A DNA stretch of 64,000 bases from Rhodothermaceae bacterium (lineage in GTDB: Bacteria; Bacteroidota; Rhodothermia; Rhodothermales; Bin80), in contig VXLY01000105.1 of NCBI GenBank assembly GCA_009841335.1, positions 4,136-68,135 on the forward strand. The letters run 5' to 3'. The first letter of the stretch is position 1. Every line of letters begins with the position of its first letter. A program made the translations under genes and the position numbers. The notes below the pieces were generated by a model. That model did not search any database. It was given only the letters and a program-made list of their open reading frames with translations, and had not been told where the DNA came from. Shown piece by piece: positions 1 to 34,113 of this stretch.

Positions 1-2580
1 CGTTACGAGTCTAACGGGCTGACGCAGGCTTTGCATGGCTTTATTGATCGCCTACCGCATCCCACGTCAACGGATACTAGTCAGCCACTTGCTGAGCTTG
101 TCAGGGATTTCGGAACAAGGCTTGATCACCCTCCCTTTGTTGATCCGAACTACTGCCGCATCTCGGAGGTCTTCTCTTGGTTACTTGGCACAGCCATCCA
201 TGCGATAGAGAGACTCGTATCCGCCCATTCAGAAGTGGCAATGCAGGATCATGGAATCGCGATTATACTCAAGCGTTCGGCTGCACGCGGTTGGGAAGGC
301 TCGAGCATTGATGACTACCAGGACAGTTTGGACAAATTGATTCCAGCTTGGCCCGAGTTGAACGACATCCTCTTTTGGAAATGTGTAGGGCAAGTACGGG
401 AACGGATGGAGAATGACGGGGAGCGGCTAAACAATGTACTACAGGTCCTACTCCCCGAACCGTATTGGTCATTTGGAACTGACGCTTTGCCCCGAGTACT
501 TGAATGGGTTAGAAAACGCGAACTGGAAGACGACCGCCATATTGCAATCTCGCTCGCCGTTCACATCTACGCAGAAGGGGGAAGACGTGTCGACACGCTT
601 ACCCGACTACAGGACGCTATTTCAGGTGATACTGAACTGGATGCGCGGCTGCATCAATTGCTTAATCCCAGCATATCGGAGCACGAACGCAAGCTCCAAC
701 AACAGAATTCGGAGATTAGGCAGCAGCGAGAGCAAATGAACCTCGAGCAAGAGCAAATAAAGGCAGATTGGATTGCGCACCTCAGGGCAAATCCCGACTG
801 TATTCGAATTCCTCCGGGGATGGGGCCCGGCGGGTTTAGTGGTGATCAATACTGGCTACTCAGAGAAGTAGAAGGTAGCGGCCATCAATCAAGCCGCTAC
901 GAAGGTGCAGCATGGGAATCCCTTATAGATGAATTTGGGATCGATGTCGCCCATGCGTACCGAGACGCCGCCATGAGACATTGGCGGCATTATAAACCCG
1001 AACTTCGATCAGAAAACCCGTTAGTCCAGCCAGATAGTTCTACCGGACAAGTCATTCCTTATTCTCTGCTCTTCGCCCTCGCAGGTCTCGAAATTGAGGC
1101 GAAGGAAGTAAGAGAATTTCCAAAGCACCTGAGCGATTCTGAGGTGTCTCACGCCCTACGCTACATCACTATGGAATTGAACGGCTTCCCGTCTTGGCTG
1201 GAGGCAATGTACCGAGCACGCCCTCAGGCGGTGATAGAAGCCACTAAGACTGAACTTTTCTGGGAATTGACCAACACACGACCCGGTCAACACATCCATT
1301 ATATCCTCGACGACATTAGATTCAGCGCTCCTTGGCTGCACTCCCCAATCGCCGAACCGTTGCTTGAATGGATGCGTGTACATGACGTGCCGAGCATTGA
1401 AAAACTAAGTGCCTGCCTCAGCATTTTGAGAGGCAGCGATGTGGATCCGCCGCAACTCGCCATGGTCGCGCAATCCAAAATTGCAGCTGGGCAGCCCAAA
1501 GAGCGTCTCCCGTACTGGTACGCTTTGTGGGTCGATTCCGAACCAGATACAGGTATTCCGAGCGCCGCCAACTGGCTCGATTGTTTCGATTCTCTCAGGG
1601 AGAGTTCACACGCTGCGCAACTCTTTGTTTCTACACTATTGGGCACCACCGGCGGAAGAAGTAGTGGGCCCTATATTGAGAACTTCAGAACGGCCGCGCA
1701 CCTCAAGGCTCTGTATGTGCTGATGCATAGACATATTCGTTTGGAGGACGACATTGATCGACCCGCCGGTAGAGGGTATACACCCGGATTACGTGACAAT
1801 GCCCAAGACGCGCGTAACTCATTATTCAGATTTCTGTCGGAGATTCCCGGTAAAGCGGCCTATGTCGCAATCAACGAACTTGCAGAAGAGCATCCCGACC
1901 CTGATGCTCGACTCTGGATGGCAAGACACGCATATAATCGTGCAGAGCAGGATGGCGATCTTGAGCCACTGACCGCAGACCAGGTCCATGAGCTTAACTC
2001 CAAGCTCACACTAACACCGTCAACCCACCGCCAACTGTTTGATCTGGCGATTAATCGCCTGACGGATCTCAAGGACTGGATTGAGCACGGCTTTGATAGC
2101 CAGTACGTGACTTGGCAGAAAGCCCAAAATGAAAGCGAATTGCGGAATCTCGTGGCCGGTTGGCTTAACCAGAATTGTAGTAACACATTCACGACTGCAC
2201 AAGAACTCGAGCTGGCGAATGGTCAGCGAATAGATATCTGTCTACAAAACGACAATGTTCGATCTCCAGTCCCGATAGAACTCAAAATGCTCAACAAATC
2301 CTGGACGGGACGAGACCTATGCGAGGGGCTATGCAACCAACTTGCGACTGATTACCTCCGACATGAGAAAGAGGGTTGCGGCGTAATGCTCCTTGTCTGG
2401 GGAGGAACTAGTAGGCCTGAGCGAACGTGGCAGATCAACGGTAGACGCGTGGGTGTGTCGGATCTCCAGGAAGTCCTTGATGGCTATTGGGTTAAGATCT
2501 CGAATGGCTTTCAGAATGTTGCGGCCATCAAAATCATCGTGATCGATATGACTATCAGAGCAGACTTTTCAAATACGTGA
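1..2580 (+). CDS. C-terminal part (5'-truncated by window edge) of a large putative defence protein with a C-terminal PD-(D/E)XK-like nuclease domain
   Basis: Frame is open from base 1 (RYESNGLTQALHGF...). C-terminal ELELANGQRIDICL...VPIELK...NQLATDYL...GVMLLVW fits a restriction-endonuclease-like D...ExK motif. The NTPase domain expected in such proteins is not visible in the window. Confidence 0.65.
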   Translation, partial: RYESNGLTQALHGFIDRLPHPTSTDTSQPLAELVRDFGTRLDHPPFVDPNYCRISEVFSWLLGTAIHAIERLVSAHSEVAMQDHGIAIILKRSAARGWEGSSIDDYQDSLDKLIPAWPELNDILFWKCVGQVRERMENDGERLNNVLQVLLPEPYWSFGTDALPRVLEWVRKRELEDDRHIAISLAVHIYAEGGRRVDTLTRLQDAISGDTELDARLHQLLNPSISEHERKLQQQNSEIRQQREQMNLEQEQIKADWIAHLRANPDCIRIPPGMGPGGFSGDQYWLLREVEGSGHQSSRYEGAAWESLIDEFGIDVAHAYRDAAMRHWRHYKPELRSENPLVQPDSSTGQVIPYSLLFALAGLEIEAKEVREFPKHLSDSEVSHALRYITMELNGFPSWLEAMYRARPQAVIEATKTELFWELTNTRPGQHIHYILDDIRFSAPWLHSPIAEPLLEWMRVHDVPSIEKLSACLSILRGSDVDPPQLAMVAQSKIAAGQPKERLPYWYALWVDSEPDTGIPSAANWLDCFDSLRESSHAAQLFVSTLLGTTGGRSSGPYIENFRTAAHLKALYVLMHRHIRLEDDIDRPAGRGYTPGLRDNAQDARNSLFRFLSEIPGKAAYVAINELAEEHPDPDARLWMARHAYNRAEQDGDLEPLTADQVHELNSKLTLTPSTHRQLFDLAINRLTDLKDWIEHGFDSQYVTWQKAQNESELRNLVAGWLNQNCSNTFTTAQELELANGQRIDICLQNDNVRSPVPIELKMLNKSWTGRDLCEGLCNQLATDYLRHEKEGCGVMLLVWGGTSRPERTWQINGRRVGVSDLQEVLDGYWVKISNGFQNVAAIKIIVIDMTIRADFSNT

Positions 2581-2672: not shown

Positions 2673-5600
2673 TCAGGGTATGACGGCTTGCTGTTTAAGT
2701 GCCTGTAGACGACGGTCCGTTTCAAGGTTGGGATTTGCCATCACCAGTCGATCAATCAAGTCTGGAAGGAAATAGAAGTCGCTGGTGCTACTACGACCGT
2801 AGACGTCCCATAACAACCCAAGGGTTTCACTGGGGAACATCTCAGGCATATCGGACTCGGCAATGACATGAAGTCCAGAGAAGGATGAAGATCTGGGGAC
2901 GATATATGGTTCCAAGAACCTGCATGCCTGAGGGAATTTATTGCCAGCGCCAACGGCCAACTTCAGGAGATTGGATGTGTGTCTCGTACTCCAGAATTTG
3001 CCTTCATTTGGCCAGATTTTCTCGAAGAAGGGGACAACCGTACTTGACCAAGCCGCTTCTGGATTATCTCTTTCACATTTAGATCGGTAACTTAATACGT
3101 CATTCAATACTTCGAGTGCACCTACAAGGAGGGCGGGAGATGACCTTTTCAAGACGCCAGTCGCATCTGCAGCAGTAATACCCCACTGAACTGTTGTGTC
3201 GGCGTCCTGCTCAATGTTGGCCAGTGCTGGAAGGACAACCCATGATGCGACTTTGCGGCGAGCGCGATCGTGGTCCCAACCCCACTCCAATAGGCCCTTA
3301 AGAAGTGCATCCTTGATATGAGTCGTAGCCAAAGCACTGGTGGGGTGATATTGTAGTATGATTATACGTAGCTTTTTCCCTTCTTCATTTTCAGCGTGTA
3401 GAACAGGTTTGAGGTTTTCAACAACAACTGAGAGTCCACAGTGGATCAGGAATGCGATATTACGCACAAGCACTGCGCGTCCCACAAGACCGACTGTACC
3501 CGGATACTCAGTGATTCGAATGAGGAGTTGGAATTGTTGGGTCGTTGGAATGCGGCCTTCTTTGAACAGGGCCTCAATTTTCAAGAGAAGCACCTCTGTT
3601 AGTTGGCCTGCTGGGGATTGAGTCGCTTGTTTGTATAGGTCGTCCTGATGGTCTGTCTCCTGCTCAGGGTGTTGTTCGAGAGATTCCCATAGCCTAACGA
3701 CCCACCCATCAAGCGTAGAAGAATTGCTCTCCCATGTCTGGCGAACTAAGGTGCAGAGAGCGGGCAAAACTGAGTGCAGGTCCTTTGTTTTTGCCTTGAA
3801 CAAATGTCCAAGTGCCCGTGCTGATAGGTTTTCACATTGTTGAGTACTAGATGAGTCGCTAGATGCTAAGACGTACAATAGCGTGTTCCATAGTTCGCTG
3901 TCGGCAAGATCAAAAGCTCTCTGTAATAGCGTGTCCAGTGCCCCTACCGGATCGCTCCGGCAATAAGTAGCCCATCCCTCTCGCTCCTCCAGATCACGAC
4001 TTGCAATCTGTTTTCGCGCAACTTGCAGGCGATCCTCTTCCTGTGCCTGTACAATGGGCGTAGGATCACCGACTATCAGTCGTGCCTGGGATATGTAAGT
4101 GCCGAAAAAGTCCCGGTCTTCTATCGCTCGATCCAAGTGGCTGCGGCGTTCAATAATTGACTCAAGTTCATTGGCGCCGATAGGCGATAGGGCATCAGCG
4201 TCTTCCAGTATCCTGAGAAGAAGCCACACCGCGTTGTCCCGTGCATGTTCTCGCCAATCGGATTCGTTTGGTTGCAATGTATATCGCCCGTAATAACTAC
4301 GGCTGCTATCACGGATCAACAGTTCAAATTCCCTCACCAATTCAGGCGCAGCGTTTCCAGCCCGATCTCTGATCAGGAGTGCTGATTCCCGGCGCAACCG
4401 CCAGAAATCCTGTTCGGAGACAGACAGCAATATTGAAATTGCATCGTCTGCACTGAACAGCGCGGGGTTTCGCATGGCGTGAAGGTAAAGACGGAGCCCA
4501 ATTCGCCCAGGAAAATGCTTCCAGCATTCCACGATGCATTTAGTGCCCTCGGGATCCAAAGTATGTGCTTTGGTCAGGCATTTGCTGAGAAGCTGGACAA
4601 GAAAGACCTTCCCCCCATGCGATTCATTTTGGAGATGGCTTTCTACAGAAGGCACCGCCCAGTCATTGTAGTCATGCTCATCATGAATCAGTCCGAGTTC
4701 CTTTTCGAGTTCAAGTATGGACCGCAATTCCCAAGTGGCAAGTTCGAGAATACGCTGAGTGTGATCTGACATCTTGCACAGCGAATTAGCTAACTCCTCG
4801 GCCTCTTTATAGTCGGAAACATCAATGCGTGCATTCAAGATGGAAGCCAAAGGGTGCCCACGATTTGCCAGTTCCCGTGCGCGGGGGCTCCGGCCCAGTT
4901 CCAGCTTCGGTGCTAGCTGGGCTACCGCCAAACGTAAATCGCAGTCCAGGACTATCTCGTTATTGAGAGGCATCTGCACTCGGGAGAAGGCTGTATCGTT
5001 ACGCTGCGCCGGAACGGCGAGGCAAAAGAGTCGCCATACTTTCTTCCAGTCCTGATCCAAGTTATTCGCACGAGATAATATCGCAGCCATATGCTCCGTA
5101 AATGGCTGCCCCACCTGCCTCTGCCAACGCAACGCACAGTCGAATCTGTCAGTATTCTGTAGGTCCCTACCAACCCAGACAGAAACGAATCTGGCAATTT
5201 CGGCCTCATGCCATGCTCCATCTTGCCGAAAGAAATCAAACCATTTTGGGTCCATAATGGCATCTAGCGCGACCGACCAGAGATTTCTAGGTTTTTTAAG
5301 AAGCCATACTATTTCGTTCCGTGACTGCGGACACGATTCCGAAACATCCTGTTTTAGAATTGTGATTACACGCGATCGGAAGGCTTCCTGTTGGTATTCA
5401 ACCACATATACCAATTCCCTCAGGTCGCGCCATAACGTAGCATGGTCTTCTTCTCCAGTATTCTCGTTCATTTTGCAATATGGGAGAGCCTTGACAGCTA
5501 GAATTTGCCAAAATGCGACAGCCTCCTGCTTATCCTTATCATCCTTGTATTCAGCGAAAGCATATACCTGCCGCAGGTCAGAGAACCGGGTACGATCTGC

Positions 5601-6299
5601 CTCAAGTACGTTGAGCAAATAGCGTACGGGCACATCGTTGGCGCTGTATCCAACGAGTAAAATATCCCTGCAACGCACCAGATCAAAGAAAAAGCGTGAA
5701 GCCCAACCGGACCGCATATAAGCCTCTCCGAAATCGGTACTGGTTAGTACCAGTGGACTCTGTTCCAAGTCAAGTTCTGGGTCCGCCAACCGTCCGTGTA
5801 TATGCACGATGCCCGTAAAATCGGAACTGCCGGGCGCTGGCAATGCTTGGCCAGCAGAACTGATTTTCTTCAGGCAATCTTTGTCATTAAGGGTTACTGC
5901 AGCCCTCTCCAGCAGAGTGTCAAAGTTGGTCGTCACTACTATAATCCGGTTATCCAAATCCCGGGCAAGGCGGAGGATGGTGCAGTGATGATCAAGGCAT
6001 GCAGAAGTGGGCACAGCGAGCAGATCCGAAACCGATCGCGTAACCTTCTCAGGATCTGCCAGCCGTTGTCTGAGCGATCCCAGAACTTCCTCATACCGCT
6101 CAGCTTTGAACGCTATTTCCTCTGACTTCGACATATCCATCGAGAGTTCTTTGTACGTCCGCTCAACCAATCCCTTGAAATCTGGCAATTGCGGTCTGCT
6201 GATTCCCGAACCGCAGAGAAAAACCACCTCACCCTTCAATAGTGAGTCGACTAGGTCACCCGGGAATTCTGGCCCATCATTTGAAAAACGGAGAGACAT
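2673..6299 (-). CDS. SIR2-domain anti-phage protein, Dsr1-like (1208 aa)
   Basis: N-terminal sirtuin motifs GEVVFLCGSGIS, TTNFDTLLE, VHIHGRL, LVGYSAND. The start MSLRFSNDGPEFP and the long helical C-terminus resemble Dsr1/DUF4020-type proteins as I recall them. Confidence 0.85.
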   Translation of the reverse strand: MSLRFSNDGPEFPGDLVDSLLKGEVVFLCGSGISRPQLPDFKGLVERTYKELSMDMSKSEEIAFKAERYEEVLGSLRQRLADPEKVTRSVSDLLAVPTSACLDHHCTILRLARDLDNRIIVVTTNFDTLLERAAVTLNDKDCLKKISSAGQALPAPGSSDFTGIVHIHGRLADPELDLEQSPLVLTSTDFGEAYMRSGWASRFFFDLVRCRDILLVGYSANDVPVRYLLNVLEADRTRFSDLRQVYAFAEYKDDKDKQEAVAFWQILAVKALPYCKMNENTGEEDHATLWRDLRELVYVVEYQQEAFRSRVITILKQDVSESCPQSRNEIVWLLKKPRNLWSVALDAIMDPKWFDFFRQDGAWHEAEIARFVSVWVGRDLQNTDRFDCALRWQRQVGQPFTEHMAAILSRANNLDQDWKKVWRLFCLAVPAQRNDTAFSRVQMPLNNEIVLDCDLRLAVAQLAPKLELGRSPRARELANRGHPLASILNARIDVSDYKEAEELANSLCKMSDHTQRILELATWELRSILELEKELGLIHDEHDYNDWAVPSVESHLQNESHGGKVFLVQLLSKCLTKAHTLDPEGTKCIVECWKHFPGRIGLRLYLHAMRNPALFSADDAISILLSVSEQDFWRLRRESALLIRDRAGNAAPELVREFELLIRDSSRSYYGRYTLQPNESDWREHARDNAVWLLLRILEDADALSPIGANELESIIERRSHLDRAIEDRDFFGTYISQARLIVGDPTPIVQAQEEDRLQVARKQIASRDLEEREGWATYCRSDPVGALDTLLQRAFDLADSELWNTLLYVLASSDSSSTQQCENLSARALGHLFKAKTKDLHSVLPALCTLVRQTWESNSSTLDGWVVRLWESLEQHPEQETDHQDDLYKQATQSPAGQLTEVLLLKIEALFKEGRIPTTQQFQLLIRITEYPGTVGLVGRAVLVRNIAFLIHCGLSVVVENLKPVLHAENEEGKKLRIIILQYHPTSALATTHIKDALLKGLLEWGWDHDRARRKVASWVVLPALANIEQDADTTVQWGITAADATGVLKRSSPALLVGALEVLNDVLSYRSKCERDNPEAAWSSTVVPFFEKIWPNEGKFWSTRHTSNLLKLAVGAGNKFPQACRFLEPYIVPRSSSFSGLHVIAESDMPEMFPSETLGLLWDVYGRSSTSDFYFLPDLIDRLVMANPNLETDRRLQALKQQAVIP

Positions 6300-6619: not shown

Positions 6620-7963
6620 CTACTTAAAGCGTCCTGCGCGAATTTTGCAAAAAAATTTCTTGCAAATCTGGCTGAGCTCACTTAGAAAGTCAGTGAAAAT
6701 GTTTGGGGCTGCCGCTTGGCTCATATAAGTTGGGTTTGGATCGATTTGCTTTGGCGTAGGGCCAAACCGAAAGTCATATGAAACGGTGTGGATAACTAGG
6801 CGATTAACACTTACCACTTTCAGGATGTCTTCTCTAATAGGTCTTCCGAATAATGCGACGTTTGAAAATGTTCCAGCCTTAATGTGTTCATGGAATTGTG
6901 GAATGCGACGCAAAGATCTCCCATAAATGGTTTCATTTGGCATTTGCCAGGTCCTGACTTTATTAAAGAACGAGGGATACAGTAAACCATCAAACCCAGC
7001 CTGATTAGCAGCGCGAGAAATGTCTCTGCTAATTTCATAGGAGTGTCTTGCCGCGTGAAACAACATGTTGATGGCCGTGTCCAGGCTCTCAAACTCTGTT
7101 TCCCCATCCTGATTGGGCAAAATCACCGTCAAGTCAAGTAGACGTAGATTACTCCTTGGAATAAGGGCCGCCAAATAAAGATCGTCTTCTGCGGTTACAC
7201 GACATTCATGAATGCAGGTGTCTATATCATCTGAGCAATACAAAACAGGCAGGTCTTTTGAGTCCAGTCGGCCATCCCCTACATGTTTTATCGGAGGACT
7301 GTCATATTCGAGATAGTCATCAGGGTCGCGGGGGTCTATCCTTAGGCGGTATAGGATTGTATCATGGGGTAGTATCCTTTCGGGATATTCTTCAAGGACA
7401 CGGTCTATTACGGCCATTCGGGTACAAGGATTTATCAAATCCTTCAACGGTTCTACCTCCCCCAACATCCAAAGGTTAGGGGCGTAATGGAAGAAGCGGA
7501 TCCGCCCCTTCTCACTGAGGAGGGCAACGTCATCTCTTAGTGATTCATCACCCTCGTAATCACCTTCCCGGGGCTGCATTTCATTGAATGCGATTAATGG
7601 GGCATCCCCATATCCCTGCTTAGGTCTCCACATACTCCCTCTCTCAAAAAACTGACGTGCCAGATGTTGGATTAAGTGATGTGTTAGTTTTTTCGTATCA
7701 CGCTCCCCACAGTGAGGACATGATAGTGCAAGTGGCACTGCTACACGTTCTGCATTCAATCGCAATCCATGGTTTGACAAGCAATTAGTACATATTAGTG
7801 GACGGTAACTATGAACCAAGTTACAAATCAGGATTGCTCCCAGGCGAGTCCTAATCGCATACTTCCCTACTACATCAAGAAAATGAAGAGCACGGTAAAT
7901 TCTACGGCGCAAATACCTGTAGAAAATTCGCATGGGGTTGAGAGATTTTTCATTATTGTCCAA
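6620..7963 (-). CDS. RES-domain protein with N-terminal CxxC...CxxC (Zn-finger-like) region
   Basis: LYRLR...DSPP...GDGRLDSKDLPVLYCS...CIHECR...RLLDLT...GFDGLLYPS carries the R, E and S signature. N-terminal ICTNC and SCPHC. Start codon uncertain. Confidence 0.8.
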   Translation of the reverse strand: MDNNEKSLNPMRIFYRYLRRRIYRALHFLDVVGKYAIRTRLGAILICNLVHSYRPLICTNCLSNHGLRLNAERVAVPLALSCPHCGERDTKKLTHHLIQHLARQFFERGSMWRPKQGYGDAPLIAFNEMQPREGDYEGDESLRDDVALLSEKGRIRFFHYAPNLWMLGEVEPLKDLINPCTRMAVIDRVLEEYPERILPHDTILYRLRIDPRDPDDYLEYDSPPIKHVGDGRLDSKDLPVLYCSDDIDTCIHECRVTAEDDLYLAALIPRSNLRLLDLTVILPNQDGETEFESLDTAINMLFHAARHSYEISRDISRAANQAGFDGLLYPSFFNKVRTWQMPNETIYGRSLRRIPQFHEHIKAGTFSNVALFGRPIREDILKVVSVNRLVIHTVSYDFRFGPTPKQIDPNPTYMSQAAAPNIFTDFLSELSQICKKFFCKIRAGRFK

Positions 7964-8133: not shown

Positions 8134-9612
8134 CTAGGTACTATAAATCTTTTTGGTTGCTTCCACTGCTTCATCAAGGCTGGGCAACAGGGTCTCCCGT
8201 GAGACATCAAGCAGGCGAAGTTCGTCATTGATCGTATCCTTGCTATCATGTGGTATTTCAAACGTGAAATGATCATAGATAAGGATATCGGAATTAAATT
8301 CCAGAACCATCTCCCTCTCCAATCTCTCATGGAACGCCGAAAGGAGGAAAGCTCCGCGTTGTGCCCTAATTCGCTCAAATGATTGCCTTGGCTCAACAAT
8401 AAAGACCTTAAAAAACAATTTTGGATTGGGGCAATAATCAAGATAGTATTTCTCTTTTCGCATCTCCCTCTGTAAACGCTCCATTGACATACTATAGACC
8501 AGTGACGCTCCGAACTTAGGATTCTCCTTCCCCAAAAGAGTCTGTTGGTCGTGATAAGGTAGCTTAGCAAAAGTTGACAAAATGCTAATCTCGTCACTGT
8601 TGGGGGATTTAATCATTTCACGAGGAACAGAAAATACATGCATCCGTCCAGGCCGCTTCTCCACACCACCCTCGCACGCCCAAAACAACGCGACCAAGGG
8701 GTTTCGTGTCAGGTCAAGTAGTCTGGTAGGTAGTCCATGATGCCGCGCGATCACCCATTCGTCAAATGCGGATGATGCATTTAAGAAATCATTTGGCCTC
8801 ATGGTTAAGACGTTTTGCAACAGGTCGTGTTCTTTCTCACGAAAAGTCCCTTGTCCGTTTTCGCGCTCACGCATAACAGACGGCCGTAGACCCCAGTTGT
8901 TTGCGGGTTCACCACGAAAATAGAACACTCGTTTAGGATACAGATTCTTTAGCGCTCTATATACGTTTAGCAGTTCCTCAATGCGCTGAATGTTGCATGT
9001 ATCACCTCCAGAGCCAAATGGGTTTGATGTTGGCTTGCTACTCGCTGACTTCGCGTAAAATAGTTTCGACTCCCACAAGTCAACACCGTAGAGTACAACA
9101 TCCGCCAAACCCACACCATATAAACCCGTGTTCATTACGTTAGCCCATGACATGACAGCCCCCCGCAGATTCGCACCCGAAAAATCAGCCTCGGTAAGGT
9201 TAGATCCTTCCAAATTAGCTTCCACGAGGTCTGCACAAGTCAGGACGGCATTGCGGAGACTTGCCCCTCTCAGACAAGCATTGTTAAGCATTGCATTGTC
9301 AAGGTTCGCCCCATCAAGCACCGCGTTCCTAAGGTAGGATTTTTCCAAGGTTGCATGCTGAAGTTTTGCATCCCGAAGGTCTGCTCCATGGTTTCCATAT
9401 CTCTCCCCCAGAATAGCACCACACATCTTCGCAGCAAAAAGATTAACACCGCGAAGGGGTATTCGCCCATCGTCATCAAGCATGTTGGCTTCGTCAAACG
9501 CCTTGTAAATGTTTACACCAGATAGGTCTGGAATAAAAGGGGACTGCTCTTGTCTATCGTTCCAGCTTTCTACCCCTTCCAGTATCCACTTAAGATGTTG
9601 AGAGTTTGCCAT
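8134..9612 (-). CDS. Pentapeptide-repeat / FRG-domain fusion protein
   Basis: Likely start MANSQHLKWILEGVESWN (ATG 9612). About 20 A(N/D/V)Lxx pentapeptides, then FRG motifs FYFRGE...LRPSVMR and ARHHGLPTRLLDLTRNPLVALFWAC. Confidence 0.85.
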   Translation of the reverse strand: MANSQHLKWILEGVESWNDRQEQSPFIPDLSGVNIYKAFDEANMLDDDGRIPLRGVNLFAAKMCGAILGERYGNHGADLRDAKLQHATLEKSYLRNAVLDGANLDNAMLNNACLRGASLRNAVLTCADLVEANLEGSNLTEADFSGANLRGAVMSWANVMNTGLYGVGLADVVLYGVDLWESKLFYAKSASSKPTSNPFGSGGDTCNIQRIEELLNVYRALKNLYPKRVFYFRGEPANNWGLRPSVMRERENGQGTFREKEHDLLQNVLTMRPNDFLNASSAFDEWVIARHHGLPTRLLDLTRNPLVALFWACEGGVEKRPGRMHVFSVPREMIKSPNSDEISILSTFAKLPYHDQQTLLGKENPKFGASLVYSMSMERLQREMRKEKYYLDYCPNPKLFFKVFIVEPRQSFERIRAQRGAFLLSAFHERLEREMVLEFNSDILIYDHFTFEIPHDSKDTINDELRLLDVSRETLLPSLDEAVEATKKIYST

Positions 9613-10126
9613 GAGTGCCCAGCCATTTTCCTTAGTTGGACGTAACCGATCCAGACGTAGCCGGTTCACAAAACCACGATATCAGCATATTTTCGAATTC
9701 AGATGGACTAACGAGCAAGGATTCAGATTACTCCTGTTAAATTAAACTGCACCGTGTCTTGTTGGGTCATGAAATCTGATCATCTCAGACATGCCGAGAT
9801 ATGGGTGTATCTTAGAAATTAGGAATATGAACATATTTCCGTATTCCTGTTCTCCAGAAAGCGCGGGTACATCCCGTAGATACAAAACTTTGAACCATAC
9901 CATTTGGAACCTCCCACGCTACACCAGTTTGCCATTTCATTGAAACCTAATCGCCTCTAGATTCTAAGAATAGCGACGAACAAATGCCAACCATTCAAGT
10001 AGTGCTCGGGGGATTGGACAAGTTGATGTCCCAAGTCTGCCAGATCACCAATGGCAGTAAAATTGGTTTACAAGAAGCCTGTTTGAAAGTGTTAATACAT
10101 TTTCGAACCAACAGAACGGACATTTT

Positions 10127-11035
10127 ATGAAAATACGGAATGGCCCTGATGGCATTCATTTTTTTGACAGGAATTCGGGCACTAATCTGCTGCTGAATGA
10201 AGTTGTCTTACCCCCTGAGATTTGGAGTAGGTCGCCAAGGCAAGTGTCTATTGCACTGACTAATGCGTGCGACCTCGACTGCCTGCACTGTTATGCCCCG
10301 AAAACAAAAGCGAGACTTGAGGGTCAGCTTGTCAAGCGGTGGATGTCTGAGTTAGATGAGCAGGGTTGTTTTGGCGTCGGATTTGGCGGCGGGGAACCAA
10401 CCCTGCATCCAGAGTTGGTCGATATCTGCAATTATGGACAGTCAGAAACTGGCTTGGCAATTACAATAACTACTCATGGACATCACCTAAGTAATGATTT
10501 GTTGTCCCAACTTGCCGGAAGTGTAAATTTCATCCGTATAAGCATGGATGGTGTGGATTCGACTTACGAATCAATCCGGAATCGCTCCTTCAATCATCTG
10601 CTTGCAGTTCTCAAGAAACTGGATAGCCTTGTGCCATTTGGGATTAATTACGTCGTCAACCACAGAACTATTGATGACCTTGACAAAGCAATTCTTGTCG
10701 CCGAGAGCTTGAAGGCAAAAGATTTTCTTCTGCTGCCCGAGGAACCGTTTGGCCGAGGTGTGGAAATTGATAGCGGGTCACTCAAGCGATTAAAGGAATG
10801 GGTAGATTTGTACAAGGGCAATCTACGGTTGTCGGTTAGTTCTAGCTACGCGGCTGAATTCCCGAGCGCGTTGCCACTTGAGAAGGAGCCCGAGGAAATG
10901 GCTTTTTCCCACATTGACGCCGCAGGTGTTCTGAAACGAAGCTCCTATGAAAGTGGTGGCTGTAAAATTGATTCCCGCGGCGTCATAACCGCATACAGGT
11001 TATTGAACAGAGACACTGCAAGAGGTTTATTATGA
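10127..11035 (+). CDS. Radical SAM protein (302 aa, no SPASM domain)
   Basis: CX3CX2C motif CDLDCLHC (10268-10291), GGGEPTLHP, ISMDG. No C-terminal cysteine cluster. Confidence 0.9.
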   Translation: MKIRNGPDGIHFFDRNSGTNLLLNEVVLPPEIWSRSPRQVSIALTNACDLDCLHCYAPKTKARLEGQLVKRWMSELDEQGCFGVGFGGGEPTLHPELVDICNYGQSETGLAITITTHGHHLSNDLLSQLAGSVNFIRISMDGVDSTYESIRNRSFNHLLAVLKKLDSLVPFGINYVVNHRTIDDLDKAILVAESLKAKDFLLLPEEPFGRGVEIDSGSLKRLKEWVDLYKGNLRLSVSSSYAAEFPSALPLEKEPEEMAFSHIDAAGVLKRSSYESGGCKIDSRGVITAYRLLNRDTARGLL

Positions 11036-11421
11036 AGATCTGGAAGAGCTACGGCTCTGAGCATTCAATGAATCTTGTCATGATCGGCAGTTTCAAAAAG
11101 GAGGACGACGCTGAAAAAGTCGAAGAGGAGCTTAGGTTTCTGTTTGAAGAAATTCGAAGCTTGGACGATTCCGAGGTTTTTAGAGATCGATTCAGCGATG
11201 ATGTCAAAAAACTGCTGTATTCGAAAGAGATATACTGCTTGATGCCGCAGGAACTAGAGCAATTCCAGTATGATCATAGCTTCGAGCGCGACGGTAAAAA
11301 AATACGGTACTGGACCGACGAGTGGGATGTTTCAGCAGCGCTGAAAATCATGCTCACGGGGGGAGCGAAAGTGGAAATATTCTCTGGAGACAATTATCGA
11401 GAGTCCGATGTGAAGGAGTAG
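11032..11421 (+). CDS. Small acidic hypothetical protein (resembles DUF6375 family by recall)
   Basis: ATGA overlap with the radical SAM stop. N-terminus MKIWKSYGSEHSMNLVMIGSF. 10-bp gap to the next gene. Confidence 0.75.
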   Translation: MKIWKSYGSEHSMNLVMIGSFKKEDDAEKVEEELRFLFEEIRSLDDSEVFRDRFSDDVKKLLYSKEIYCLMPQELEQFQYDHSFERDGKKIRYWTDEWDVSAALKIMLTGGAKVEIFSGDNYRESDVKE

Positions 11422-11431
11422 AAAGTCGGGA

Positions 11432-14400
11432 ATGCTTGATTGGGGAAAATTTAAAAACCTTACGGGAAGCGACTCCGAAAACTTCGAGAAACTGTGTCGT
11501 AGCATAGTGCGCAGGAGGTTCGGACATTGCGGTCCACTTATTGGGAGAAGGAATCAACCCGGTGTTGAGTTTTATATCCGGCTCAGTCGGGATTGTCCCG
11601 AATTAGGCAGTTCGGGCGAAAAGGTCGGGTGGCAGTGTAAGTGGTTTGAATTGAGAGCGAATAAGAAACTAGTGTCTAATCAAAGGAAGCAAATCAGGCG
11701 CTCTCTTGACACTACAAAAGCTCATATTGAAGGTTTAAATCGCTGGATACTCTGGTTACCCTTCACGCTGGCTGAAGAGGATCAGGACTGGTTTTATGGT
11801 CTGCAACCTGAATACGAGTACGAACTGCATTTGTGGAATGCCGAAGATATTGACGGTTTTCTGGAAGGTCCGGCACTTGAGTTAAGACACGCATACTTCG
11901 GTGAACTTGCGCTGACTGATGAAGCATTGGAATGGCAGCATGGTTTGTCCGTGGCCCCGATAAGAGAGCGGTGGATAAAAGAGGTTCATCACCAGGTACG
12001 GGTCGAAAAAGAGTTACAACAATATCTCGGTCATCCTTCGGCTTGGGAAGACTTTAAACAAGCAGGTGCTTCCCTGTCAGAAGCTTATGAGGCCATAAAA
12101 AAAGATGTTAATGAATCCATTTATTGTGATTGGTCACAAGACCTGAAGGAGTTCCTACTTTATTGCTCAATGTGCCTCAGGTTTGCTGAATATTTTACTA
12201 ACAATCTAAGTGCGGAAGACATTGAGTCTATTAACGGCATGCTCAGTCAGGTTAGATCGCTTGATTCAAGAATTCGTACTGTCTTGTACCACATAAGAAA
12301 CAGGAATCTGCCGCTTGCTATAGAGATTACTAATTCACTTGCATGTATCAAGGACATTCGAAAACTGCTGGAAAACGCATCGGAATATTTGTCCTGTTCT
12401 TTTGTTGCCGTGATAGCGGATGCTGGGGGCGGCAAGACTCAGATGGCTGCTGAACTGACGGCAACTCAACGGCATGGTCACCGACCTGCGGGGATCCTTC
12501 TGCATGGCAGACGTCTCCAGAAAGGTGGCAGCTTGGATGACCTCGCCAAGGAGATTTCGTTTTACGGACAGAAAGTACCAAGCTTCCAGGCATTAGTTTC
12601 CGCCCTTGATGCAGCCGCCTACAGAAGCAATTGCCGCTTGCCAGTTATTATTGACGGTCTCAGCGAGGCAGAGGAGCCCAGGGAATGGAAGCCGGAGCTT
12701 AAAACAGCGCTCGAACTGCTTAGGAACTATCCGAATGTTTTGCTTATATGCACATTAAGATCCGGCGAACGGGAACACCGTGAGGCCGCTCCCCGTCGCA
12801 ATAGAAGGGCGAACAACCGGGAGATCTTTGCGCAAATGTCACTGCCTGAAGACTGTGCCCGCCTAGAATGCGACGGCTTTGGCAATCTAACTTTGAAAGC
12901 CGTCAAAAGCTACTTCCAGCATTATAAAATCGAAGCAGATTTAGTCCGGATCCCGAAAAATTTTTTTAACCACCCACTGAACCTGCGGATATTTTGCGAG
13001 GTAACTAACAGGAAGGCAGAAGAAACAGTGAAGGTTACTACTTTTCCTACCTCAATTACAACCTTGTTCGGCAAGCAAATTGAATATGCTGCTGAAAGGA
13101 TAGCCGAGTTCACCAATCTCCATCGGCCTTACAGTAAAGAGGATGTTCGGTCTACAGTTTTTCACTTTGGGAAAGAGTTGTGGGTGTCGGGGATGAGACA
13201 GGTTTCCGAGGCGGATCTACTCCGTTCGCTTGATCAACCAGGGAGGAGTTGGGATGATAGTATTGTCAGTCTTCTGGCGCAAGAGGGAATAATATTTCGC
13301 AATCCAGACGATATCCCTGGGGCATACACCATCACTGCGGTTTTTGATCGATTGGGCGGCTACATAATTGCTGACGCGTTATTACAAGAAAACAGAAGTA
13401 ATACCATGTCTAACTGGATGTGTAGTGACACCATTCTGGAAATGCTGTTTGGAGAAAATGAATCAAGTCACAGTTTGTCTCAGGACATTTTGCATGCTCT
13501 GATAGCTCTCGCTCCTAAATACTCGCGCAATCAAGAACAGCTATGGGAGGTTGTCCCGGAGAAGTATAGAGAAGAAGTTATTGATCTGTCAACACTGATT
13601 GACCCCGAGGATTTCTGTGACAAAACCAAACAAGAATTCAGAGAGCAGATACTACGAAAGGGATTGGATTATTCTACACTAGCGCGTTTGGAGGATCTTC
13701 TCGCTAGCGATCACCCGCTTAATGCGGATTTTCTGAGTGACTTATTGAGAGCTTTTTCCGTAAAAGAGAGGGACCTTTCGTGGACTGAATATTTGCGAGG
13801 GTATTATGGCGACTATATGTTACCTCTGTTGCCCAAAATCGACTCCCTTGTACAACGATGGAAGTCCGACAGTACACCTAAAACTGAAGGCGACAGGCTT
13901 TTGGCTGTCTGGGTCAGTTGGCTGCTTACGTCCACATCCATTGAGATACGGGACTTCTCTACCGAAGCCCTTTACTGGTATGGCAGAAGTTGTCCTAGGA
14001 ATCTGTTCGAGGTGACCGTTTCTTCGCTGGACATTAATGACCCCTATGTTCCTGAAAGGCTTTTAGCCGCCAGCTACGGAGTTGTCATGTTTTTTGTATA
14101 CAAAGAGGAACATCTGGAAGAAATGAAGTGGCTCGTTTCCCGGTTATACGAGCAAATGTTCTGCAAGTCGGCCAAAAACGCGACGACACATTTCTTAGCC
14201 CGGGACTACGCGAGTCGGATAATATGGATAACAAGAGAACTCTTAGCGGGGACTCTATCTAATGAACAATTGGCGGATGCTTCACATCCCTATACCTCCA
14301 TGCCGAGACGAATATGGGGATCTCTAGAAGGGATTGCAACAGGGCCAAGGACTGAATCTCCCTTGGGCATGGACTTCGAAAATTACACTATCGGAAGATT

Positions 14401-15571
14401 AGTTCCAGGTCGCAATGCCTACGATTATTACCATCCTGATTACCAGGACGTAAGGGCAAAGATATTGTGGCGTATTAAAGATCTTGGATGGAACAACGAG
14501 GACTATGCAATCGCCGAAGAAAGAATCTCCGAAGGCTCAAACCGTAGAAGGATGCATGGTGATCGAATCGAACGCTACGGGAAAAAATATTCGTGGATTG
14601 CATATTATGAAATAGCGGGCCAGCGCCTTGATGAAGAAATGTTGAATACCTACGGTGAGCGATTTGCGGCAGATCTTGATCCAGGTTTTCCAAAACCGAT
14701 TGTTGAAAGAGAATTGGGAGCGGCAGAGTATCTAGGCGATTCTGATATGGATACGGTCGACTGGATCAAGAATTCAAACCCGCCTGAAATAGACCATCTA
14801 ACCAAAATAGACTCTTTGGATGGTGTATCTGGGCCCTGGGTTTTGTTATATGGTGGTGTTTCTGAAAGATCAAAAAGGATAGACAGGTATTTTGATTTTA
14901 GTTGCAGAGCAATCTTGGTTAAGCAGGGCGATATACAGAAACTGATTTCTTACTGGAGGAATGGCGGGCGGGAGAAAATTGATTTGCCAGAAATGGTTCA
15001 ATCTACGTACCTGTATTCTGGAGAATTGAACAGGTTGCCAGATAGTATGCTTAACTCTAATGTAGATATTAATCTTGTTGTAGGTACAACGGTCGAACGG
15101 CAGGAGCAACCCACAATTACATTTGTGGAGAATGAGGAAACCATTGTCTTAACAACTAAACAAGTACTTGAAGACGTTGTAGTTCCGGTCTATGAATCCA
15201 TAAGAGCATGTAACCCAGTGGCTGAGTTCTGTTGGCTTGCGAGAGATAGTTCTACGCCGAGTCTACCAGTGATCGTTCCGACTTCAATATTAGTGGAAAC
15301 CCTGAATCTTAAGATTGATCCAGCATCATTTGATGTTGAGGATATTCAAGGCAACCTAGCTGCACGCAATATAAATTTTGGAGGCCAGACGCATGGCAGC
15401 TACAGGAGGTTCTTCTATATACGAGGAGATCTTTTGACTAGATTTATGGCCGAAGAAAGACTGCAATTGGTCTGGCTTGTACATGGAAGGCGAACAGCCG
15501 ACATTTTTTCGTCAGACGCTGCGTATCAGGAATTTAGTTTTGCAAACCAGGTGAGAGATAGCTCACTGTAA
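11432..15571 (+). CDS. Avs/AVAST-like STAND NTPase with N-terminal Mrr-like nuclease (1379 aa)
   Basis: N-terminus W..FK...NFE..C...NQPGVE...GWQCKWF resembles the Avs4 nuclease domain. Walker A ADAGGGKT (12416-12439), Walker B VIIDGLSE. Long C-terminal sensor-like region containing IERYGKKYSWIA. Confidence 0.8.
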   Translation: MLDWGKFKNLTGSDSENFEKLCRSIVRRRFGHCGPLIGRRNQPGVEFYIRLSRDCPELGSSGEKVGWQCKWFELRANKKLVSNQRKQIRRSLDTTKAHIEGLNRWILWLPFTLAEEDQDWFYGLQPEYEYELHLWNAEDIDGFLEGPALELRHAYFGELALTDEALEWQHGLSVAPIRERWIKEVHHQVRVEKELQQYLGHPSAWEDFKQAGASLSEAYEAIKKDVNESIYCDWSQDLKEFLLYCSMCLRFAEYFTNNLSAEDIESINGMLSQVRSLDSRIRTVLYHIRNRNLPLAIEITNSLACIKDIRKLLENASEYLSCSFVAVIADAGGGKTQMAAELTATQRHGHRPAGILLHGRRLQKGGSLDDLAKEISFYGQKVPSFQALVSALDAAAYRSNCRLPVIIDGLSEAEEPREWKPELKTALELLRNYPNVLLICTLRSGEREHREAAPRRNRRANNREIFAQMSLPEDCARLECDGFGNLTLKAVKSYFQHYKIEADLVRIPKNFFNHPLNLRIFCEVTNRKAEETVKVTTFPTSITTLFGKQIEYAAERIAEFTNLHRPYSKEDVRSTVFHFGKELWVSGMRQVSEADLLRSLDQPGRSWDDSIVSLLAQEGIIFRNPDDIPGAYTITAVFDRLGGYIIADALLQENRSNTMSNWMCSDTILEMLFGENESSHSLSQDILHALIALAPKYSRNQEQLWEVVPEKYREEVIDLSTLIDPEDFCDKTKQEFREQILRKGLDYSTLARLEDLLASDHPLNADFLSDLLRAFSVKERDLSWTEYLRGYYGDYMLPLLPKIDSLVQRWKSDSTPKTEGDRLLAVWVSWLLTSTSIEIRDFSTEALYWYGRSCPRNLFEVTVSSLDINDPYVPERLLAASYGVVMFFVYKEEHLEEMKWLVSRLYEQMFCKSAKNATTHFLARDYASRIIWITRELLAGTLSNEQLADASHPYTSMPRRIWGSLEGIATGPRTESPLGMDFENYTIGRLVPGRNAYDYYHPDYQDVRAKILWRIKDLGWNNEDYAIAEERISEGSNRRRMHGDRIERYGKKYSWIAYYEIAGQRLDEEMLNTYGERFAADLDPGFPKPIVERELGAAEYLGDSDMDTVDWIKNSNPPEIDHLTKIDSLDGVSGPWVLLYGGVSERSKRIDRYFDFSCRAILVKQGDIQKLISYWRNGGREKIDLPEMVQSTYLYSGELNRLPDSMLNSNVDINLVVGTTVERQEQPTITFVENEETIVLTTKQVLEDVVVPVYESIRACNPVAEFCWLARDSSTPSLPVIVPTSILVETLNLKIDPASFDVEDIQGNLAARNINFGGQTHGSYRRFFYIRGDLLTRFMAEERLQLVWLVHGRRTADIFSSDAAYQEFSFANQVRDSSL

Positions 15572-15739
15572 TAGTTGTCTTAAGTATGTGCTGAGTGTAT
15601 AGAGTTGGTACTTGTCCCGGATTAATCTGTGGACATTTTCCTGTATCTCTTATGTAACTCCCGTACTCTACCCTCCATGGTATAGCACACCCATTTTGTC
15701 TGGACAGGGCCACCTGTGACGCATATTTGTAAGCTTGCT

Positions 15740-16624
15740 TCAAATTAGCGGCAACAACGTCTCGGCGGAACGACGCACATGCATTTCATAAAAATCGGAA
15801 CTGAATACGCTGCTGCCATGATCCTCCAGAAATTTTCGTTCTGAATCCGATATCCCTTCGGGGTTGGAGTCTACACTGCCCGGAAACCGATTCGCTGGCG
15901 TGCGATCAAGTGGAGGACAAAATTCAACCGAGATCGCACCGTCGTAACCAACCTCTTTTAACGCCTGCACGATTGCAGGCCAATCCAAACAACCCATGCC
16001 ACAGGCCATGCGGTTGTTGTCTGCAACGTGAAAGTTTACCAGGCGGCCTTGTGCCTCGTGAATAGCGGCAATCGGATCATCCTCCTCAATATTCATATGA
16101 AAGATGTCTAGACATACCCCGCAATCTGGAGCCACCGCCTCAGCCAAGGCCAACGCCTGGGCACCCCGATTAATGAAATAAGTCTCGAAGCGATTAATGG
16201 GTTCAATGCCGATCTTGACCCCGTGCTGACGCCCATGCTCATTGATCTCCTGCAAAGCAGCAACACACCAGTCCCACTCCATCTCCGGAGTTGAGTCTGG
16301 AACGATTTTCCCGACCGTGCTGGGCACTACCGAGATAACCTCCCCACCCAATTCGCCCACCATCGTGATGCAATCCTTCACATAAGTCACTGATTCTGCT
16401 CGCTGATCCTCGTCTTTTGCAAGGAGATTGCGCTCATCAAGCATCAAGGTGACACTGCCCCAACAACGCACCCCATAGCTATCCACAAGCTTGCGAACCT
16501 TACCAGTATCGTATTTGTAGGGCTCGCCCTGAATTTCCAGGCTCTTATAGCCGTACTTGGCTAACCGCTCAACGGTAACCTCTATTGGTTCGACCTTCAT
16601 CCAGTTGTGTATCGCAAGGTGCAT
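15740..16624 (-). CDS. Sugar phosphate isomerase/epimerase (xylose-isomerase-like TIM barrel; ketose 3-epimerase family)
   Basis: IGIEPINRFETY, LDIFHMNIEE, FHVADNNR metal-binding motifs. Confidence 0.9.
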   Translation of the reverse strand: MHLAIHNWMKVEPIEVTVERLAKYGYKSLEIQGEPYKYDTGKVRKLVDSYGVRCWGSVTLMLDERNLLAKDEDQRAESVTYVKDCITMVGELGGEVISVVPSTVGKIVPDSTPEMEWDWCVAALQEINEHGRQHGVKIGIEPINRFETYFINRGAQALALAEAVAPDCGVCLDIFHMNIEEDDPIAAIHEAQGRLVNFHVADNNRMACGMGCLDWPAIVQALKEVGYDGAISVEFCPPLDRTPANRFPGSVDSNPEGISDSERKFLEDHGSSVFSSDFYEMHVRRSAETLLPLI

Positions 16625-31942: not shown

Positions 31943-32413
31943 TCATTCTCCGTTGCTGAAACCAAACTCTTCGTGCAGCTTGGGCAGATTAAATTGTCCC
32001 CGACAACAAGAACGTAGATGGTTTCCTTTCGGAGGGAGTGCTCCGTGGATCACTTACATTCCCCTAGTCTCAAGAAATTCCGCCACAGGGACAAAATCCG
32101 CGTCGGAGGAAACCAGCCCGGCTACGTCGTAGTTGTTAACCCACACCAATTTGATCATATCTGCTGCCATGCGTACATCTATACCCTTCTCCTCCGTTCC
32201 ACGCATATCGGCACCGCTCTCTCGACAAACTTTCGTGATTTGATGACGTTGCGGACATTTACCAATGAAAGAACCTATTGACGTAAGATTTGGAATTGCG
32301 AGATGCAAATCGGTTGCCAGTAGTGATCCCCGTCTTGTGGACACGGTGGCTACCAGCCTTAAAACCATACATAACCGGTTCTGCCGCGAATATTGTGGAG
32401 AACCACAAAACAT
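31943..32413 (-). pseudogene. NYN (PIN-like) domain gene, C-terminal fragment with premature stop
   Basis: EEKGIDVRMAADM...LVSSDADFVPV. In-frame TAA at 32054-32056 is followed by continued NYN-like sequence VIHGALPPKG...FNLPKLHEEF to TGA at 31943-31945. Confidence 0.75.
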
Positions 32414-32679
32414 TTTACAATGCGAAAACGAAGAGACTCCGTGATACGATCATTTATCGCTCTGTTTTGTGCAGCTATGCTGATGTTTTTCGGCGGTAAT
32501 GCATGATCACAAAGCGATGTATCCGATAAAAAATGCAACCATAAATGTAGCTTTAAAGGATGCAGCGGCGGTCATAAGTCGTGCCGTGGTGCGAACGTCA
32601 GATGTTGCCACGTTGAAGATCTTCCCCGTACCACAGATGAAACATGGGGCGTATTATGTTTCGACAGCATATTTTAGTG

Positions 32680-32940
32680 ATGAAAGTAACTATTAAATCT
32701 CGTAAGGCTCGGAGGCTTTTTGCATCATTGACATTCGTATTAATTATTAGTCTATCGGGGTGGGCGTCCAATAATGCTGGACTTAGTATCGTCCCTGAAT
32801 GTTGTGACTCACGATCATGTCGTGCGGTGGGATGTGACGGGGGAAATATGATATGTGCAACTATGCCATGTCAGTGGTGTGTGGACATACCTCATTCAAT
32901 TTGCTTCCCATGGGTCCTGGTATATTCTAAGTGGGCATGA
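32680..32940 (+). CDS. Small putative secreted cysteine-rich peptide (8 Cys)
   Basis: Basic then hydrophobic N-terminus (MKVTIKSRKARRLFASLTFVLIISLSGWA), then ECCDSRSCRAVGCDGGNMICATMPCQWCVDIPHSIC. ATGA overlap with the next gene. Confidence 0.55.
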   Translation: MKVTIKSRKARRLFASLTFVLIISLSGWASNNAGLSIVPECCDSRSCRAVGCDGGNMICATMPCQWCVDIPHSICFPWVLVYSKWA

Positions 32941-33971: not shown

Positions 33972-34113
33972 GTCAAGGATGAGGTGGTGGGTATAGGTCT
34001 TTTACGAAAGAAAGTTTTTATACCTTGCCCCGCAAAGGCACACGTGCGAAAGATACGTCTGGATTTTGGTCCAGGCGAAATGCCGTTTTAGGATAGATTT
34101 TAGAGAAATTACA

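Follow-up and report, generated by a model that had tools for sequence, protein, structure and literature searches.

The three co-oriented genes at positions 10127 to 15571 of the 64-kb stretch of DNA that we analysed (the window) are very probably an intact copy, acquired horizontally, of the avap1-avap2-avs2 operon already published as the KpAvs2 type. [quoted passage not shown] 2024, Nat Commun; PMC11564622); judged by its sequence, the window locus is a divergent new copy of it. A preliminary description of this DNA had proposed an undescribed three-gene system. That proposal is refuted, since an existing model, the Avap1-Avap2-KpAvs2 operon of PMC11564622, already covers the triad and the window proteins are full-length homologues of those of loci in that study's clade.

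Table 1. Features in and around the trio (positions are those of the window).
Feature	Coordinates	Strand	Remarks
Dsr1-like SIR2	2673-6299	opposite to trio	defence-type neighbour
RES-domain protein	6620-7963	opposite to trio	defence-type neighbour
Pentapeptide-FRG fusion (PADLOC PDC-S15)	8134-9669	opposite to trio	defence-type neighbour
Divergent intergenic region 5' of avap1, presumed promoter region	9670..10126		457 bp; no notable ORF
avap1 (radical SAM accessory protein, 302 aa)	10127..11035	+	PF04055; 49% identity to L005 Avap1
avap2 (DUF6375 accessory protein, 129 aa)	11032..11421	+	PF19902; 49% identity to L005 Avap2
avs2 (Avs2-clade STAND protein, 1379 aa)	11432..15571	+	PADLOC Avs2 PDLC02164, E 3.2e-105
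Right edge of the island	15572..15739		backbone junction ~15665-15736 (blastn against same-genus genomes)

As shown in Table 1, the ORF coordinates and the sequence bear out the arrangement given in the preliminary description, with an ATGA overlap between the first two genes and a 10-bp gap before the third. At the avap1/avap2 junction (ttATGAag, 11030-11037) the ATG at 11032-11034 overlaps the TGA at 11033-11035, and 10 bases separate the TAG of avap2 (11419-11421) from the ATG of avs2 at 11432. All three frames are open, and the products of 302, 129 and 1379 aa compare with medians of 305, 135 and 1348 aa among relatives. The radical SAM motifs reported for the first gene, CDLDCLHC (C48, C52 and C55) and GFGGGEPTL, were found, and the avap2 product is indeed acidic (pI 4.77, with 30 D+E versus 20 K+R). 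A promoter scan of the divergent intergenic region gave weak sigma-70-like matches whose count was not above that of shuffled sequences. Similarly, no terminator-like hairpin was found in the segment downstream of avs2 (15572..15739), where scan matches were not above shuffles.

The published operon provides the functional background (PMC11564622). KpAvs2 is a 1352-aa protein with an Mrr nuclease-STAND-sensor organization, and its defence is abolished in the K71A, K337A and delta1066-1352 mutants. The STAND protein alone gives only weak protection. Avap2 co-immunoprecipitates with KpAvs2 and is required for full defence, including that against SECphi18; it binds constitutively to the helical bundle that separates the nuclease of KpAvs2 from its NTPase. 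Avap1, which confers no defence alone, is needed against T2 and is dispensable against SECphi18, its role being limited to some phages. KpAvs2 is triggered by the large terminase or by small phage proteins, among them Ksap1 and Ksap2. We found no literature on Avap1 or Avap2 later than this study.

The window trio shares with the KpAvs2 operon the same three families, gene order, orientation and defence-island setting, and its proteins align with their counterparts over their full lengths. Two loci of the published clade were used for these comparisons: L005, which we took as KpAvs2-type by its length (1352 aa), K71 in QCK and K337 in GEGKS, and L018, which comes from a genome that is listed by name in Fig. 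1B of PMC11564622, Nitrospirae bacterium JdFR-85. Window Avs2 can be aligned from end to end with both reference proteins, the 1352-aa one of L005 (residues 2-1354, 32% identity, 601 bits) and that of L018 (35% identity, 771 bits), while Avap1 and Avap2 are each 49% identical to their L005 counterparts, Avap1 across 297 aa. K70 and K335 of the window protein are the equivalents of the essential K71 and K337 of KpAvs2. Apart from these modest identities, the window copy differs from the published operon in its host phylum, where DUF6375 was carried by 1 of 401 genomes, in the C-terminus of Avap2 (SGDNYR as compared to the consensus SAHDYP) and in its sensor, which is rich in indels at approximately residues 1201-1250. 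Together with the 32-35% identity of Avs2 to the characterised clade, these indels suggest that the trigger may differ.

The identification of the large gene as an Avs-type STAND NTPase with a PD-(D/E)xK (QxK) head was confirmed by its PADLOC Avs2 match and by two PDB matches: 9o4e (Avs2; E 1.4e-32, residues 321-961) and, in a PDB profile search with the nuclease head, the head of EcAvs4 (8dgf, E 1.3e-4). A Pfam search with the nuclease heads of 32 members returned no family at a useful E-value. The protein consists of the nuclease (residues ~1-175), a helical linker (~180-300), the NTPase, with Walker A K335 (GGGKT) and Walker B D408, and the C-terminal sensor. Among 63 sequences there is no variation at E46, Q68, K335, D408 or E412, and position 70 holds K (56 sequences) or R (seven); the window protein has K70 within WQCKW. 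PADLOC, which the preliminary description had suggested as a check on novelty, recognized the Avs2 gene, the only one of the three that PADLOC 2.0 models cover. The NCBIfam Avs2 equivalog model NF041813 scored 252.6 bits and did not reach its cut-off of 1000. This model appears to be narrower than the literature Avs2 clade, as suggested by the PGAP label 'hypothetical protein' on the large gene of E. coli KpAvs2-type copies.

Two other Avs systems are related to parts of this protein. Stand-alone Avs2 (AVAST type 2; EcAvs2, PDB 9o4e; PMC13601566) has a homologous STAND NTPase and following region, and by analogy the same logic would be expected, with terminase-type recognition leading to oligomerisation and effector activation. 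However, stand-alone Avs2 needs no further gene to work, whereas window Avs2 is strictly linked with two accessory genes. The head of EcAvs4 aligns with that of window Avs2 at NQpGvE/NQSGIE and GWQCKwY/GWQSKFY, but EcAvs4 has the NTPase and sensor of a different Avs family; Avs4 recognizes portal protein and lacks Avap partners.

The trio is conserved as a unit well beyond the window. We sampled 80 loci from other genomes, in 69 of which both flanks could be assessed, and the three genes recur in an identical order in all 69, which are spread over more than 10 phyla. The four-base Avap1/Avap2 overlap was found again in 53 loci. This degree of conservation argues against a chance arrangement, and it upholds two earlier proposals: that the three genes form one conserved unit, and that the radical SAM enzyme serves Avs2 as a dedicated accessory, the two being linked in every assessable locus. 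Avs2 was likewise present in 73 of 73 loci whose downstream flank extended for 1.5 kb or more, a sample biased to close DUF6375 relatives. We also looked for a conserved fourth gene and rejected it, as each flanking gene family occurred in at most four of 41 loci.

Within the host phylum the trio is very rare. Besides the single carrier among its 401 genomes, DUF6375 was carried by two of 61 relatives, and samples of 400 genomes from each of two phyla yielded no further DUF6375 loci. The closest relatives of the window trio are in a Dadabacteria MAG (L010), whose Avap1 is 81% identical to that of the window, and on an IMG/VR viral contig. The trio is a rigid three-gene unit that has spread horizontally over bacteria and archaea.

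The setting of the locus is consistent with such transfer. G+C content is 0.46 in the trio versus 0.52-0.53 in the backbone, and the same-genus genomes lack the low-G+C defence island that carries the trio. In blastn comparisons with these genomes, backbone homology ends at ~15665-15736, just 3' of the avs2 stop codon; identity begins at 15683, 15665 and 15736 in the three genomes concerned (G021, G016 and G001, respectively). The low G+C content and the SIR2, RES and pentapeptide-FRG neighbours on the opposite strand agree with the earlier placement of the trio in a defence island, divergent from the other defence genes. We searched for tRNA genes as an integration site and found none within the 64-kb window.

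From the analogy with KpAvs2 we infer that the window copy behaves like the published operon. The C-terminal sensor of Avs2 would bind a phage protein, as expected by homology with KpAvs2, and the STAND NTPase would then drive oligomerisation. The N-terminal PD-(D/E)xK nuclease would next degrade DNA non-specifically, and the infected cell would die before phage release (abortive infection). As reported for KpAvs2, Avap2 would be bound constitutively at the Avs2 helical bundle and needed for full defence, while Avap1 would be required against some phages only. What we observed here is the gene content and order, the conservation of residues, the end-to-end homology and the island setting; the defence phenotype, the binding of Avap2 and the partial requirement for Avap1 are taken from PMC11564622.

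Two readings would set the window locus apart from a working KpAvs2-type operon. One is that the trio is a new defence system, distinct from the known Avs systems. It draws on database coverage: PADLOC 2.0 models the Avs2 gene only, and PGAP labels the E. coli copies 'hypothetical protein | radical SAM protein | DUF6375 family protein'. However, the same Pfam families, in the same order and with the same domain architecture, have been published and tested (PMC11564622), and the window proteins are full-length homologues of loci of that study's clade (L005 and L018), so that this reading is extremely improbable. The other is that the locus is a decaying, non-working relic. Some relatives are indeed broken: L052 and L074 have an interrupted Avs2 gene, and in L052 the alignment of Avap1 falls into two overlapping pieces, possibly because of a frameshift. 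In the window, on the other hand, none of the three frames is interrupted and their lengths are typical, no catalytic residue has been lost, and the trio departs from the ≥90% consensus at non-catalytic positions only; decay is therefore very unlikely here. As a working KpAvs2-type operon, the window locus adds little; it is a further copy, and the 2024 study had already reported the defence function, the trigger logic and the accessory genes of such a system. Pipelines label the Avs2 of this clade 'hypothetical protein' and its helpers generically, and such loci will therefore go on being taken for new systems. For the roles of Avap1 and Avap2, divergent copies such as this one do provide useful sequence contrast, which reveals the residues that are truly invariant.

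Avap1 is the best conserved of the three proteins. It matches PF04055 (E 1.5e-15, 58.2 bits, cut-off 29.5) and contains the motif of the radical SAM superfamily, with an invariant CX3CX2C cluster (C48-x3-C52-x2-C55). G85, G87, G88, G89, E90 and P91 of the GGE motif are invariant in 48 sequences, and 64 residues, including the three cluster cysteines and GFGGGEPTL, are at least 97% conserved across 71 sequences. The AF2 model (pLDDT 93.5) has the RiPP maturases SkfB and SuiB, which modify peptides, as its closest folds (E 1.4e-15, TMq 0.74-0.77), and SkfB is also the top match of the sequence-profile search. Viperins come next (E ~2e-12, TMq ~0.66), a modest margin behind. Identity to SkfB and SuiB is 14-18%, and Avap1 differs from both in lacking an RRE domain and the auxiliary-cluster cysteines of SPASM or twitch type. 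Only ~37 residues, forming three short strands, precede the core, and no RRE domain was found. Of its six cysteines only C48, C52, C55 and C101 are conserved, with no SPASM or auxiliary Fe-S cluster, and the NCBIfam SPASM-family matches are all far under cut-off and end near residue 230.

Avap2 matches PF19902 (E 1e-42, 146.3 bits, cut-off 27.5). Its N-terminal stretch MKIWxxYGSEHSMNLVxIGxF (residues 1-21) is almost invariant across phyla, and yet residues 1-11 are predicted to be disordered (pLDDT <50 in the model). Among PDB entries, a sequence-profile search for relatives of Avap2 gave none below E 0.06, and a fold search gave generic ferredoxin-like designs only (E ≥0.03, TM ≤0.42).

One possibility is that the product of Avap1 is a small molecule, such as a viperin-like modified nucleotide or some other ligand, that signals to Avs2 or serves as a second effector. 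Prokaryotic viperins (pVips) share with Avap1 the radical SAM core fold, in which they are strong structural neighbours, and an anti-phage context; PADLOC gave a pVip match to Avap1 (PDLC02903, E 2.7e-21) over residues 40-204 of 302, and a need limited to some phages (PMC11564622) is what might be expected of a separate effector. However, Avap1 falls under the pVip family cut-offs: its match to NF038283, the NCBIfam viperin model, covers residues 40-182 only and scores 56.6 bits against a cut-off of 180, and its C-terminal third, unlike that of pVips, has no match to viperin profiles. We rejected Avap1 as a prokaryotic viperin on these grounds and on the published findings: pVip-type (ddhNTP) nucleotides were not detected in infected cells, the Avap1 model in that study lacks an NTP pocket, and Avap1 alone gave no defence (PMC11564622). 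A small-molecule product thus seems improbable.

It could instead be speculated that Avap1 is a protein-directed radical SAM enzyme that has the Avap2 tail, or else the Avs2 head or linker, as its substrate or docking site, and whose modification tunes the NLR-like sensor in its activation threshold or trigger range. This is a tentative reading, to which the proximity of the model to SkfB and SuiB, the translational coupling of avap1 and avap2 in 53 loci, the strong conservation of Avap1 and the absence of ddhNTP-type products and of an NTP pocket all lend support, as does a nearly invariant Avap2 terminus that is predicted to be disordered. Furthermore, the Avs2 linker to which Avap2 is reported to bind is poorly conserved (0.38-0.47 versus 0.72 in the nuclease head, among the lowest values of the N-terminal half), which makes it more likely that the invariant Avap2 tail meets an invariant surface, for instance on Avap1 or the nuclease head. 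Against this, Avap1 has neither an RRE nor an auxiliary Fe-S cluster, its conserved cysteines being C48, C52, C55 and C101, and the fold margin over viperins is modest. Defence against SECphi18, moreover, needs Avap2 and not Avap1 (PMC11564622), so any modification made by Avap1 is not essential for Avap2 function.

In its most specific form, which is rather unlikely as it stands, the protein-directed reading makes Avap1 a stripped-down RiPP-maturase-like enzyme that acts on protein and not on nucleotide, with the Avap2 tail MKIWxxYGSEHSMN as the likeliest target and the Avs2 nuclease head or linker as alternatives. If Avap1 does modify a protein, this clade would be an NLR-like immune receptor whose tuning relies on radical post-translational chemistry. 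Such a role for Avap1 applies to the whole published family and not to the window copy in particular.

The ORF list and the sequence agree with the preliminary description, which proposed three co-oriented genes joined by an ATGA overlap and a 10-bp gap (see table). The avap1 stop and the avap2 start share four bases (ttATGAag), ten bases separate avap2 from avs2, and each of the three frames is open, with a length typical of other trio loci. Avap1 carries CX3CX2C at C48/C52/C55 and the motif GFGGGEPTL. Its matches to named radical SAM families, viperin included, all fell far under the cut-offs and were confined to the core. The small protein Avap2 is acidic, as had been noted (pI 4.77). The best PADLOC Avs2 match spans residues 2-957 of the avs2 product, which also matched the solved Avs2 structure 9o4e (E 1.4e-32). 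A profile of its first 175 residues picked out the EcAvs4 nuclease head (8dgf, E 1.3e-4), and its motifs NQPGVE and GWQCKW align with NQSGIE and GWQSKF of EcAvs4. This confirms the PD-(D/E)xK “QxK” head that had been proposed for the STAND protein.

Features of the trio and its neighbors in the window
Feature	Position	Strand	Description
849-aa ORF	31-2580	+	Left edge of island; Pfam and PADLOC: nothing at E <= 0.01
Dsr1-like SIR2 protein	2673-6299	-	1208 aa; PADLOC Dsr1 E 2.4e-84
RES-domain protein	6620-7963	-	447 aa; PF08808 E 1.5e-14; weak N-terminal zinc-ribbon match
Pentapeptide-repeat/FRG fusion	8134-9669	-	FRG half matches PADLOC candidate PDC-S15, E 2.5e-60
avap1	10127-11035	+	302 aa; radical SAM, PF04055 E 1.5e-15
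avap2	11032-11421	+	129 aa; DUF6375, PF19902 E 1e-42
avs2	11432-15571	+	1379 aa; PADLOC Avs2 models, best E 3.2e-105
Xylose-isomerase-like gene	15740-16624		Adjoins island

A full-text literature search (DUF6375; “radical SAM” with “Avs2”) returned a single paper (Bechon et al., Nat Commun 2024, PMC11564622), in which the partners of KpAvs2 are Avap1, a radical SAM protein, and Avap2, of the PF19902/DUF6375 family. Avap2 was reported alongside about 5% of Avs2 homologues, the majority of which also have Avap1 (PMC11564622). The KpAvs2 operon protected E. coli through abortive infection, in which DNA was degraded; KpAvs2 alone defended weakly, and defence was lost with K71A (nuclease), K337A (NTPase) or deletion of residues 1066-1352 (PMC11564622). 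The triggers were Ksap1, Ksap2 and the Bas22 large terminase (PMC11564622). Prediction and co-immunoprecipitation placed Avap2 on a helical bundle between nuclease and NTPase, and Avap2 could not be deleted; Avap1 was required against T2 and dispensable against SECphi18, and viperin-type nucleotides were looked for and not detected (PMC11564622). Later literature on KpAvs2 does not mention the accessory proteins.

To place the window copy we used two reference loci. L005, an enterobacterial locus reached via its DUF6375 homologue, served as a stand-in for KpAvs2, since its large protein has 1352 residues, K71 lying within QCK and K337 within GEGKS, and so agrees in length and at both mutated positions with those reported. 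L018 is from Nitrospirae bacterium JdFR-85, a genome in Fig. 1B of PMC11564622. The window Avs2 aligned end to end with both (32% identity and 601 bits against L005; 35% and 771 bits against L018), and Avap1 and Avap2 are each 49% identical to their L005 counterparts. In conservation alignments of 63-77 sequences, E46, Q68, C69, K335, D408 and E412 of Avs2 are invariant, and position 70 is K in 56 sequences and R in 7. Sixty-four Avap1 residues, among them C48, C52, C55 and the GGGEP motif, reach at least 97% conservation. The sole membership test to fail was the NCBIfam Avs2 equivalog (252.6 bits against a cut-off of 1000). That shortfall does not rule out membership, the model being too narrow, as the large gene of E. 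coli KpAvs2-type copies is itself a “hypothetical protein” in PGAP. Judged by sequence comparison, the window locus is a divergent further copy of the Avap1-Avap2-Avs2 operon already published. Synteny and homology to the KpAvs2 operon bear out the proposal of a conserved anti-phage unit of three genes that includes an Avs-type nuclease, and the claim that the system was undescribed was wrong, the same operon type having been published in PMC11564622.

A DUF6375 profile run against a single genome for each GTDB species yielded 80 loci, from Pseudomonadota, Cyanobacteria, Nitrospirota, Planctomycetota, Verrucomicrobiota, Acidobacteriota, Bacillota, Bacteroidota, Deinococcota, Dadabacteria and the archaeon Methanothrix. 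Avap1 lies directly upstream of the DUF6375 gene at 76/76 loci whose upstream flank is 950 bases or longer, and Avs2 directly downstream at 73/73 whose downstream flank is 1.5 kb or longer; where both flanks were assessable, the linkage of all three genes was kept throughout (69/69). The 4-base avap1/avap2 overlap recurs at 53 loci. No conserved fourth gene was found, any flanking family being present at no more than 4 of 41 loci; the unit is therefore three genes. At L005 the 3' end of the Avs2 gene shares four bases with an nSTAND3-domain gene (12478-14763), suggesting that the operon in this island carries a second, stacked STAND gene. The Avs2 gene appears interrupted in L052 (Altericista sp.; 9474-11193, insert of ~1.7 kb) and in L074 (8094-9220, ~1.1 kb); the L052 Avap1 alignment is in two overlapping pieces, which may reflect a frameshift.

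The trio is rare and patchy. DUF6375 was found in 2/61 relatives of the window's genome, in 1/401 genomes sampled from its own phylum and, over the Pfam cut-off, in 1/401 from Bacillota; the KpAvs2-type trio occurs in 26/5426 complete E. coli genomes. In these genomes (for example NZ_CP127324.1, 1329301-1334695) PGAP annotates the trio as [quoted passage not shown], and such generic names make the published system invisible in standard annotation. Of the two nearest copies, the one in a Dadabacteria MAG is 81% (Avap1), 60% (Avap2) and 66% (Avs2) identical to that of the window; for the one on an IMG/VR viral contig the values are 61%, 57% and 51%. Two copies at distant chromosomal sites of one genome from the window organism's family show only 49%, 40% and 37%. 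This pattern fits independent horizontal acquisition. Median identity to the window copy is 49% for Avap1, 46% for Avap2 and 33% for Avs2; Avap1 is thus the best conserved of the three, though reported dispensable against one phage (PMC11564622).

By homology, the C-terminal sensor of Avs2 would bind a phage protein, upon which the STAND NTPase would oligomerise and the nuclease head degrade DNA, aborting infection. Avap2 would be a constitutive partner of Avs2, and Avap1 would widen or strengthen defence against some phages, as in PMC11564622. The conservation alignment shows the sensor to be the most divergent part of the window Avs2, with residues ~1201-1250 rich in indels.

The AF2 model of Avap1 is confident (pLDDT 93.5). 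Its nearest folds are those of SkfB and SuiB, both RiPP maturases (E 1.4e-15 to 1.6e-14, TMq 0.74-0.77), followed by viperins (E ~2e-12, TMq ~0.66), and SkfB also ranked top by sequence profile. Neither auxiliary-cluster cysteines nor an RRE domain were found in the Avap1 alignment, model or sequence. The Avap2 model shows a small alpha/beta protein of ferredoxin-like type, and the fold search turned up no significant neighbor in the PDB; the first 21 residues of Avap2 are near-invariant across phyla, and residues 1-11 are predicted to be disordered. In the N-terminal half of Avs2, few parts are less conserved than the linker, the reported Avap2-binding region. From these features together one may reasonably hypothesise that Avap1 acts on a protein and that the Avap2 tail is its substrate or dock; this hypothesis has a rather low probability and is not specific to the window locus. 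A strict enzyme-substrate dependency between the two is disfavored, as Avap2 is needed where Avap1 is not (PMC11564622).

The defence-island setting that had been proposed, with the trio divergent from the other defence genes, is borne out by the SIR2, RES and PDC-S15-type neighbors on the opposite strand. The best-scoring Dsr1 stretch of the SIR2 protein is limited to its first ~290 residues, and no Pfam family covers the remaining ~900. The RES-domain protein matched no PADLOC model and has no obvious adjoining Xre-type antitoxin partner. The 849-aa ORF was not found in the corresponding region of same-genus genomes. G+C content is 0.46-0.48 in the island segment and 0.52-0.53 in the backbone. 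The adjoining xylose-isomerase-like gene is found in 24/24 genomes of the genus; in three of these, nucleotide identity with the window starts only at 15665-15736, and no island genes lie within 18 kb beyond that point. Another G+C dip (0.43-0.46) at 32000-35000 of the window suggests another inserted islet.
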